Translations under genes and position numbers: made by a program
The notes under the pieces: model-generated
Told to the model about the DNA's origin: nothing
Seen by the model: the letters and a program-made list of their open reading frames with translations, nothing else
Database searches by the model: none
Source of the DNA: a virus
Taxonomy: Duplodnaviria; Heunggongvirae; Uroviricota; Caudoviricetes
Reading direction: 5' to 3' (one strand)
Length of the DNA: 21,074 bases
Virus record (IMG/VR): IMGVR_UViG_3300000358_000077
Part shown: positions 12,786 through 14,287 of the stretch, piece by piece
Numbering within the stretch: the first letter of the stretch is position 1
How the letters are laid out: each line of letters starts with the position of its first letter

Positions 12786-14084
12786 TTAAATTGCATCTGC
12801 AAACTCTGTGATTTTTCGCTCAAGTATGATTGATGAGTTGCTGTTGTCGATTTTTTTATTTTCATGATTACGAATAGCCAATGACTCATTAAAGTCTTTT
12901 GCGACTGCTGTCTCAATAAATTCAATTTCTGAATCAGAGTGTTTTTTAACAGCTTCTTTGATCTCATCCAGAGTAACATAGAAAAACTCTTTTCTACGAT
13001 TTACAAGATTGACTCTCTTTTTATCGAAGACATCATGTAGTTTTTTTTCTAATGATGGAGCGTCCTCCGAATAAATCATGGCATGCACATCAAAAATAAA
13101 AGGAACAGATGCATCACCAAGCTCATTTACACGGTCTTGTGGATCAAGACGTCGTGTCATGCCTATTTTATAAACATTCTCCCCAAAAGAACCTATGTTC
13201 GAAATAATATAAACATGACCTTGTTTGGTTTGTTGTGCCATGGATAATGCTCTTTGATGCTTTGATTCAGCCTGCGACAAACTCTGTTCTAGTTCGGCAA
13301 TGCGATTTTCGAGGCGCTGCTTCATGTCACCAGTAACTTTTTCCATTTCCTTTCTTGCAGCTTCAATTGCTTTTTTATAACGGCGCTCTTCTGCCTCTGC
13401 GTCTTGCATGGCCTTTTCTATTTCTCGTTGTGCACGCTCCTCCTCTCTCATTTGTGCCCTTATTTCTGCCTGTTCTTCTTTTTCTTTCTGTTTTTGCTCA
13501 CGATATTCATGGGTAAGCCACAACTCCTCAAGTTTTTTATTAAGGTATTTAGTATTTATATATATGTGATTTTGCTCGTTTAGTTTATTTATGGCCTCAA
13601 ATGCCTTTGTGATGCGTTCTTCCATTTTAGTGATATTTTTCCACGTGCAATTACTAATTGCAGCATCACATTCATTATTAAATGCTCTAGTAGTTAGCCT
13701 AATATTTCTGTCTGTCATTTTTTTACCCTCTGCTCGAGAGCCTTCAACAGTCCATTGGGTTGTGCAATATACTGCACCAGAGTGGGTTTTATCCCGCAGC
13801 ATTAATTTCTGTTCATCCCTGATGGATTTTATTTTGTTTTTAAATTGCTCTGAATCTTCAAAATTAAAATGAGGTTCGTAAAATCCTAGTTCGGCTAGTT
13901 CAACATCTTCTGAATAAATAGAAATTTGCTTTACTAGCTTATCATATATTTCTTTCTTCTCTTTATAAGTTCTTCTTAGTTCTTGGATTTGTTTATTGAT
14001 ACCATCCATTTTTTCAATGGTGTTTGTTAGTTCATTATTGGCATTTTCTTTTACTTTTGGGACTCTTCTTTTATAATGGAGCAT
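12786..14084 (-). CDS. Coiled-coil protein with C-terminal T5orf172 / GIY-YIG-like domain (DUF4041-like architecture), 432 aa
   Basis: C-terminal segment GHVYIISNIGSFGENVYKIGMTRRLDPQDRVNELGDASVPFIFDVHAMIYSEDAPSLEKKLHDVFDKKRVNLVNRRKEFFYV fits the T5orf172 pattern. Central region is highly charged coiled coil (EEQAEIRAQMREEERAQREIEKAMQDAEAEERRYKK...). ATG at 14084..14082. Confidence 0.75.
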   Translation of the reverse strand: MLHYKRRVPKVKENANNELTNTIEKMDGINKQIQELRRTYKEKKEIYDKLVKQISIYSEDVELAELGFYEPHFNFEDSEQFKNKIKSIRDEQKLMLRDKTHSGAVYCTTQWTVEGSRAEGKKMTDRNIRLTTRAFNNECDAAISNCTWKNITKMEERITKAFEAINKLNEQNHIYINTKYLNKKLEELWLTHEYREQKQKEKEEQAEIRAQMREEERAQREIEKAMQDAEAEERRYKKAIEAARKEMEKVTGDMKQRLENRIAELEQSLSQAESKHQRALSMAQQTKQGHVYIISNIGSFGENVYKIGMTRRLDPQDRVNELGDASVPFIFDVHAMIYSEDAPSLEKKLHDVFDKKRVNLVNRRKEFFYVTLDEIKEAVKKHSDSEIEFIETAVAKDFNESLAIRNHENKKIDNSNSSIILERKITEFADAI

Positions 14085-14287
14085 TCTTGCTCTGTTTTCT
14101 CAATAAGCTTCTTACATTCCTCTTCCACATTAAAATAATCTGCAAAGCGAGATTTGTATTCTTCATTTTTTTGATTGCTATCACTTAATTCTAATTGTAT
14201 TTTTTTGATGCGTTTGATTGCAGCTATATATAGAACAAGAACAACCAATAAAAATATGATTGCAAGTAATAGTGGAGTTTGAGTCAT
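14051..14287 (-). CDS. Small protein with N-terminal transmembrane helix, 78 aa, overlapping the start of the T5orf172 gene
   Basis: ATG at 14287..14285 with AAGGA upstream. N-terminus LLLAIIFLLVVLVLYIAAI is hydrophobic, followed by a charged helix. Overlaps the 432-aa ORF by 34 nt in a different frame; could be a separate partner gene or the N-terminal part of one frameshifted gene. Confidence 0.5.
   Translation of the reverse strand: MTQTPLLLAIIFLLVVLVLYIAAIKRIKKIQLELSDSNQKNEEYKSRFADYFNVEEECKKLIEKTEQECSIIKEESQK

Follow-up and report, generated by a model that had tools for sequence, protein, structure and literature searches.

The two overlapping open reading frames (ORFs) analysed here are one gene, that of the anti-phage protein SNIPE (PD-lambda-1), split by a genuine one-base deletion. 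They lie in a 21,074-nt stretch of Caudoviricetes DNA (IMG/VR record IMGVR_UViG_3300000358_000077), which we call the window; all features described below are on its minus strand unless stated otherwise. The original prediction had offered a choice between a two-gene module of membrane anchor plus effector and a single gene split by a frameshift, of which only the latter stands. The system is already known, as a characterised prophage-borne anti-phage gene, an identity that the original prediction had missed, and is not a new two-gene module. The whole explanation, in which a known SNIPE gene has undergone a real A5 to A4 deletion and is now a recent pseudogene, probably devoid of defence function, is in our judgement very likely correct.

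The overlapping ORFs and the intact gene

What do the two ORFs encode? The smaller one, of 78 aa (14051..14287), runs from an ATG at 14287 to a TAA at 14053..14051. A Shine-Dalgarno (SD) sequence, AAGGA, can be read at 14297..14301, 9 nt 5' of the ATG, which is an acceptable spacing. Residues 6-24 (LLLAIIFLLVVLVLYIAAI; 14216..14272) are predicted to form a transmembrane helix, with a Kyte-Doolittle 19-residue mean of 3.37, and are followed by KRIKK. The larger ORF, of 432 aa (12786..14084) as called by annotation pipelines, runs from an ATG at 14084 to a stop at 12786 and shares 34 nt (14051..14084) with the smaller one in a different frame. The original prediction had described the helix, the SD sequence of the small ORF and the overlap correctly. 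About 90 nt 5' of the SNIPE start, a consensus scan places a candidate promoter (TTTACT-17-GATAAT, 14380..14408) with 9/12 matches; the number of sites found by the promoter and terminator scan in this region is no higher than in shuffled sequence.

The relation between the two ORFs is explained by comparison with complete genomes. Of 5,426 complete E. coli genomes compared by megablast with 12700..14450, 131 contain the segment. The window is identical over this segment to the records of HH45 and 23AR0806, which carry two CDS annotations; in records with 99.9% identity, the segment has one additional base and a single CDS of 1503 nt, annotated as 'DUF4041 domain-containing protein'. Compared with the intact alleles of 2 HS-C, EcPNK006 and M23917, a missing A is the sole difference in 1751 nt (intact allele CCCAAAAAG vs window CCCAAAAG). 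Alignment with 2 HS-C (intact) and HH45 (split) locates this deletion in the A4 run at 14055..14058, which is A5 in intact alleles; it falls at codon 78, where the upstream frame reads CAA_AAG_UAA.

The intact 1503-nt gene encodes 500 aa, into which the two ORF products join exactly: residues 1-78 are the small ORF, and residues 79-500 are residues 11-432 of the large one (14054..12789). Codons 1-10 of the 432-aa ORF (MLHYKRRVPK; 14084..14055) are an out-of-frame read-through of the upstream half, and the true protein frame is re-entered at GTA, 14054..14052. The TAA that ends the 78-aa ORF is premature, a product of the frameshift, and the ORF itself comprises the periplasmic tip of SNIPE, its transmembrane helix and the start of its cytoplasmic helical stalk. 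Thus, the intact homologues that the original prediction had suggested looking for, encoding one N-terminally membrane-anchored protein, do exist as a 500-aa single CDS, and its frameshift reading is borne out by a 1-nt deletion in A5 relative to otherwise 100%-identical intact 1503-nt alleles.

Other origins of the small ORF were also considered. It is no chance ORF, being identical to residues 1-78 of an intact 500-aa E. coli protein. None of its Pfam matches (DUF4446, Bap31, FtsL_2 and others) reaches the curated cutoff; they reflect the generic composition of a transmembrane helix followed by a further helix. On the plus strand, several ORFs of 31-54 aa across 14024..14355, all short and AT-rich with no matches to known sequences, were treated as chance ORFs.

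That the arrangement could nevertheless be a genuine pair, in which a 78-aa membrane anchor is joined by translational coupling to a 432-aa soluble effector, would accord with the SD sequence and start codon of the small ORF, with an overlap that resembles that of coupled genes, and with the two CDS of the RefSeq annotation. However, the split arrangement is a single homopolymer base away from one ORF, a single protein is found both in 122/125 complete E. coli genomes and in the PD-Lambda-1 family profile, and the 'second gene' opens with 10 codons of out-of-frame junk. The position of the split also speaks against two proteins: a single-sequence AlphaFold2 prediction for the 432-aa ORF, which yielded a poor model (mean pLDDT 47, pTM 0.27), weakly suggests that this ORF begins inside a long helix, so that the break would lie within a helix and not at a domain boundary. 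Finally, the published mechanism of SNIPE requires covalent anchoring (Saxton et al., 2025; bioRxiv 10.1101/2025.11.03.685801). A two-gene module is therefore refuted as a description of this locus, and we consider it almost inconceivable.

Relation to SNIPE

The identity of the split gene is apparent from its domains and from its agreement with the characterised protein. In the 432-aa ORF, Pfam detects the DUF4041/SNIPE domain PF13250 (13533..13697, residues 130-184 of the ORF; E 9.6e-20, 70.7 bits vs a cutoff of 27) and a GIY-YIG-type nuclease domain (12942..13220), matched by both MUG113 (E 1.1e-19) and T5orf172 (E 5.4e-17). Within the PADLOC profile for PD-Lambda-1 (PDLC03976, 491 positions), positions 1-80 are matched by the 78-aa ORF (E 3.5e-5), 83-484 by the 432-aa ORF (E 3.8e-190), and 1-484 by the restored 500-aa protein (E 5e-198). 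The restored protein has the published length of SNIPE, 500 aa, and all nine published residues are found in it at the same numbering (E223, N250, L253, W257, E264, K305, I308, T319 and E414), the codon of the catalytic E414 being located at 13047..13049. RefSeq now names relatives 'SNIPE associated domain-containing protein'; in NCBIfam, neither half nor the restored protein has a meaningful match.

PD-lambda-1, or SNIPE, has been described in two papers (2022, PMC9519451; Saxton et al., 2025). It is a single-pass inner-membrane protein of N-out/C-in topology with a periplasmic N-terminus, anchored by its transmembrane domain (Saxton et al., 2025). Its DUF4041 domain binds DNA and probably also the phage tape-measure protein. 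The GIY-YIG nuclease, with the catalytic residue E414, acts in association with ManYZ and cleaves phage DNA while it is being injected, which gives direct defence against lambda and other siphoviruses; the substitution E414A abolishes defence (Saxton et al., 2025). In a survey of homologues (n=474), 66% had predicted transmembrane helices on the same chain (Saxton et al., 2025). A search of that paper's text found no reference to a neighbouring HD-domain gene, nor to alleles that are split or frameshifted in nature.

Like SNIPE, the restored 500-aa protein is prophage-borne and combines an N-terminal transmembrane helix with DUF4041 and a GIY-YIG/T5orf172 nuclease. The match to the profile over its full length, the single N-terminal helix, the central DUF4041 and the C-terminal nuclease with E414 are all present. 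What the window lacks is their union on one continuous polypeptide: the frame is broken at 14055..14058, and the transmembrane helix sits on the separate 78-aa ORF. The deletion at codon 78 thus parts an anchor stub from the nuclease, and with the single-chain architecture broken, defence is probably lost. The locus is a disrupted allele of SNIPE/PD-lambda-1 and, as it stands, not a functional member of the family.

The A4 allele and its prophage island

How widespread is the deletion? Matches to an 81-nt probe spanning the lesion were obtained in 125 complete E. coli genomes. A4 was found, at 100% identity, in three of these, namely HH45 (Canada), 23AR0806 (New Zealand) and OZ547223 (from a third project); the deletion is absent in the other 122, of which 57 (all those listed) were directly read as spanning 82 nt and 65 were inferred from identity bands. 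Among 60 of the 131 whole-gene records, taken as a spread sample, 55 have the 1503-nt single CDS, and the other five comprise two A4 alleles, two copies disrupted by insertion sequences and one 95%-identical allele. In a collection drawn from NCBI, ENA, JGI and Logan, 145 contigs carry the exact 78-aa product, which is indexed in 368 blocks; 127 contigs carry the exact 432-aa product, and 210 the matching intact protein.

Over its 21 kb, the window matches 23AR0806 and OZ547223 at 100% identity. In HH45, a 4.1-kb low-GC island is 100% identical to the window, deletion included, and its flanks are 94-96% identical, placing the A4 allele in at least two diverged prophage backgrounds.

These data also bear on the possibility that the real gene is intact and that a sequencing or assembly error at the homopolymer has split it in the window only. 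The lesion is indeed a 1-nt homopolymer change, and four runs of N in the window point to a gapped or scaffolded assembly. However, the same allele is seen in three complete genomes from separate projects, two of them 100% identical to the window over 21 kb, and its product on 145 contigs from several repositories; moreover, A5 is a short run, and is read as A5 in the other 122 complete genomes. A random homopolymer error would not recur on so many independent assemblies. Judged by this recurrence, A4 truly circulates as an allele and does not stem from misassembly; the sequencing error that the original prediction had allowed for is very improbable.

A phase-variable homopolymer switch, which would call for a long tract, finds no support either, as the tract is only A5/A4; both 100% matches to the whole 21-kb window carry A4, without an on/off mix, which is a limited test confined to complete genomes. 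The SNIPE gene is interrupted in further complete E. coli genomes, by IS1 in Evo1, CP137705 and TB354, and by IS5 in LP-26-E1-261; these independent disruptions indicate that loss of the gene is recurrent. A long-read assembly (L005, 8001-10030) has both the A4 frameshift and an IS1 insertion, along with many other small indels.

As prophage cargo, the SNIPE gene is located within an island of ~30% G+C (about 10523..14630), between ren/P and ninB (ybcN), in a lambdoid prophage integrated next to icd. Strain 2 HS-C has the same island in another prophage context, with its SNIPE gene intact. Over 10523..14630, the island with SNIPE and its HD-domain neighbour is 100% identical between the window and HH45 (L003/L008), and the ren/P and ninB sequences on either side diverge by 4-6%, a pattern that suggests that lambdoid prophages exchange the island like a cassette, or else that the flanks recombine heavily. 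The neighbour, a 515-aa HD-domain protein (10879..12426), is encoded directly downstream of SNIPE in the same island and adjoins the intact SNIPE gene in 2 HS-C, too. It resembles dNTP triphosphohydrolases of the SAMHD1 type (phmmer against the PDB, E about 1e-26 for SAMHD1 and 4.5e-30 for 2hek) and has a weak match to the PADLOC defence dGTPase (E 9e-4); it may be a second, dNTP-depleting defence gene.

Elsewhere in the window, a low-GC ORF of 317 aa (5834..6787) occupies the place of lambda rexAB beside a cI-like repressor. Pfam detects no domain in this ORF; in PADLOC, it belongs by its score (E 3.4e-86) with the candidate defence family PDC-S42. A serum-survival moron, a Bor/Iss lipoprotein, is encoded at 18456..18797 (Pfam Lambda_Bor, E 1.7e-30), downstream of the lysis genes. 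The four N runs, of 60-76 positions each (1450-1525, 9400-9473, 15670-15729 and 19977-20049), are insertions relative to the 100%-identical 23AR0806 and not masks of equal length; one of them lies inside rusA, with a ~12-nt duplication on its flanks and an ORF inflated to 144 aa.

Consequences of the split

What would become of SNIPE in cells carrying the A4 allele? By removing one base of A5 at codon 78, the deletion breaks the reading frame, so that translation from the native start would halt after residue 78 and leave no more than a stub in the membrane. Residues 79-500, the nuclease part, remain fully intact in sequence but are deprived of their promoter-proximal start codon and membrane anchor, and little of this part would be translated. 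The last step is suggested by the published toxicity of anchor-less SNIPE to E. coli, set against the persistence of A4 in many isolates. The start region of the downstream ORF agrees with such a picture: as read from the sequence, only AGAG is available as a ribosome-binding site before ATG 14084, and nothing resembling an SD sequence precedes the next in-frame Met.

The engineered SNIPE(deltaTM) of Saxton et al. offers the closest comparison, as there, too, the nuclease part is uncoupled from the membrane anchor. Cloning of this construct failed, and its induction from a vanillate promoter was highly toxic; its catalytically dead version, expressed from the native promoter, moved from the membrane to the nucleoid, and SNIPE fusions without the anchor likewise relocated to the nucleoid, where the host DNA suffered double-strand breaks (Saxton et al., 2025). 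While the toxic SNIPE(deltaTM) keeps the native start and ribosome-binding site, the downstream part in the window has no efficient start, lacks stalk residues 25-78, and is probably barely made. As SNIPE needs the anchor on the nuclease chain, and as its published anchor-less form is toxic, we infer that the A4 allele is most likely a recent loss-of-function, defence-null pseudogene. The downstream ORF has no further mutations, which would fit a recent event and would be compatible with retained function, too.

One rival reading is a new role for the downstream product, of 432 aa or, from the next Met, 407 aa, as a soluble nuclease that acts as a cytoplasmic toxin or abortive-infection effector after internal initiation or re-initiation. 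Its DUF4041 and nuclease parts are unmutated and E414 is present, and as the stub ends at a stop codon 31 nt beyond ATG 14084, some re-initiation is conceivable. However, a good SD sequence for the downstream ORF and a partner immunity gene are both absent, and anchor-less SNIPE cleaves host DNA and is highly toxic (Saxton et al., 2025). An appreciable constitutive level of such a nuclease should therefore be counter-selected, and yet the allele is common. We regard this role as exceedingly improbable.

Another reading would leave the A4 allele attenuated rather than null, if leaky, corrective -1 frameshifting at the lesion gave low levels of the wild-type 500-aa SNIPE. While the slow stop UAA occupies the A site, a fraction of the ribosomes on the Lys codon AAG (14056..14054) would slip back by one base onto AAA and continue with GUA. 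The geometry for this is exact: shifted by -1, CAA_AAG_UAA reads Q-K-V-K-E-N, the wild-type sequence, and the junction peptide of the slip product would read ...EESQKVKENANNELTNTIEK. In E. coli, CAA_AAG before UAA is recognised as a weak context for -1 shifts, so that some full-length protein might be made. The single E. coli tRNA-Lys, whose pairing is tighter with AAA than with AAG, can slip by -1 on NNA_AAG hexanucleotides, B. subtilis cdd shifts at CGA_AAG, and slow A-site stop codons promote shifts ('shifty stops') (PMC5009743); in E. coli, single-base deletions are suppressed to a measurable extent by -1 shifts that are not programmed (PMC10861913). As in B. subtilis cdd (CGA_AAG) and E. 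coli dnaX (A_AAA_AAG), a Lys AAG follows an A, allowing tRNA-Lys to re-pair with AAA in the -1 frame, and the zero-frame stop codon after the slip site is as in corrective or incidental -1 frameshifting at NNA_AAG.

The hallmarks of a programmed site, however, are wanting, as none of its three components, a slippery heptamer, a stimulatory RNA structure and conservation, is found here. Unlike cdd and dnaX, the lesion offers no X_XXY_YYZ heptamer, only the weaker NNA_AAG hexamer in the zero frame UCC_CAA_AAG_UAA. No stimulatory structure is predicted downstream, where 101 nt fold with an MFE of -6.5 kcal/mol (z = -0.53) and 55 of 200 shuffled sequences fold at least as well, nor is there a convincing SD-like stimulator upstream; an Rfam scan of the whole window found nothing. 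The split-frame arrangement is not conserved either, occurring in 3/125 complete genomes against a single-frame family profile, and the yield of the slip is expected to be low. CAA_AAG_UAA is a chance context made by the mutation, not an evolved recoding signal. Leaky production of wild-type SNIPE from the A4 allele thus has a small chance of being real, and that this leakiness is of functional consequence has at best the same small chance, perhaps a slimmer one. There is only a slim chance that the allele is 'dimmed' rather than dead, the slip leaving a low and perhaps less costly level of membrane nuclease. If true, such dimming could explain how A4 has spread to >100 sequenced isolates without further decay, and would make it a natural 'savior indel' that tunes a defence gene.

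With the A4 allele read as a pseudogene of SNIPE, the finding is mainly of value for annotation and for censuses of defence systems. RefSeq/PGAP (L002, L003, L004) presents the two halves as ordinary separate CDS, WP_109545430.1 (78 aa, 'hypothetical protein') and WP_225090597.1 (432 aa, DUF4041 protein), and not as a frameshifted pseudogene. Domain-based censuses will therefore still count the A4 allele as SNIPE/PD-lambda-1, although the gene so counted is most likely non-functional. Beyond this and its bearing on the SNIPE model, the locus represents a routine pseudogenisation of a known accessory gene. For the model itself, A4 provides a small natural experiment, in which the uncoupling of nuclease and anchor is tolerated in many isolates. 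This tolerance fits the published view of a dangerous cytosolic form, and implies that the downstream part is hardly translated.
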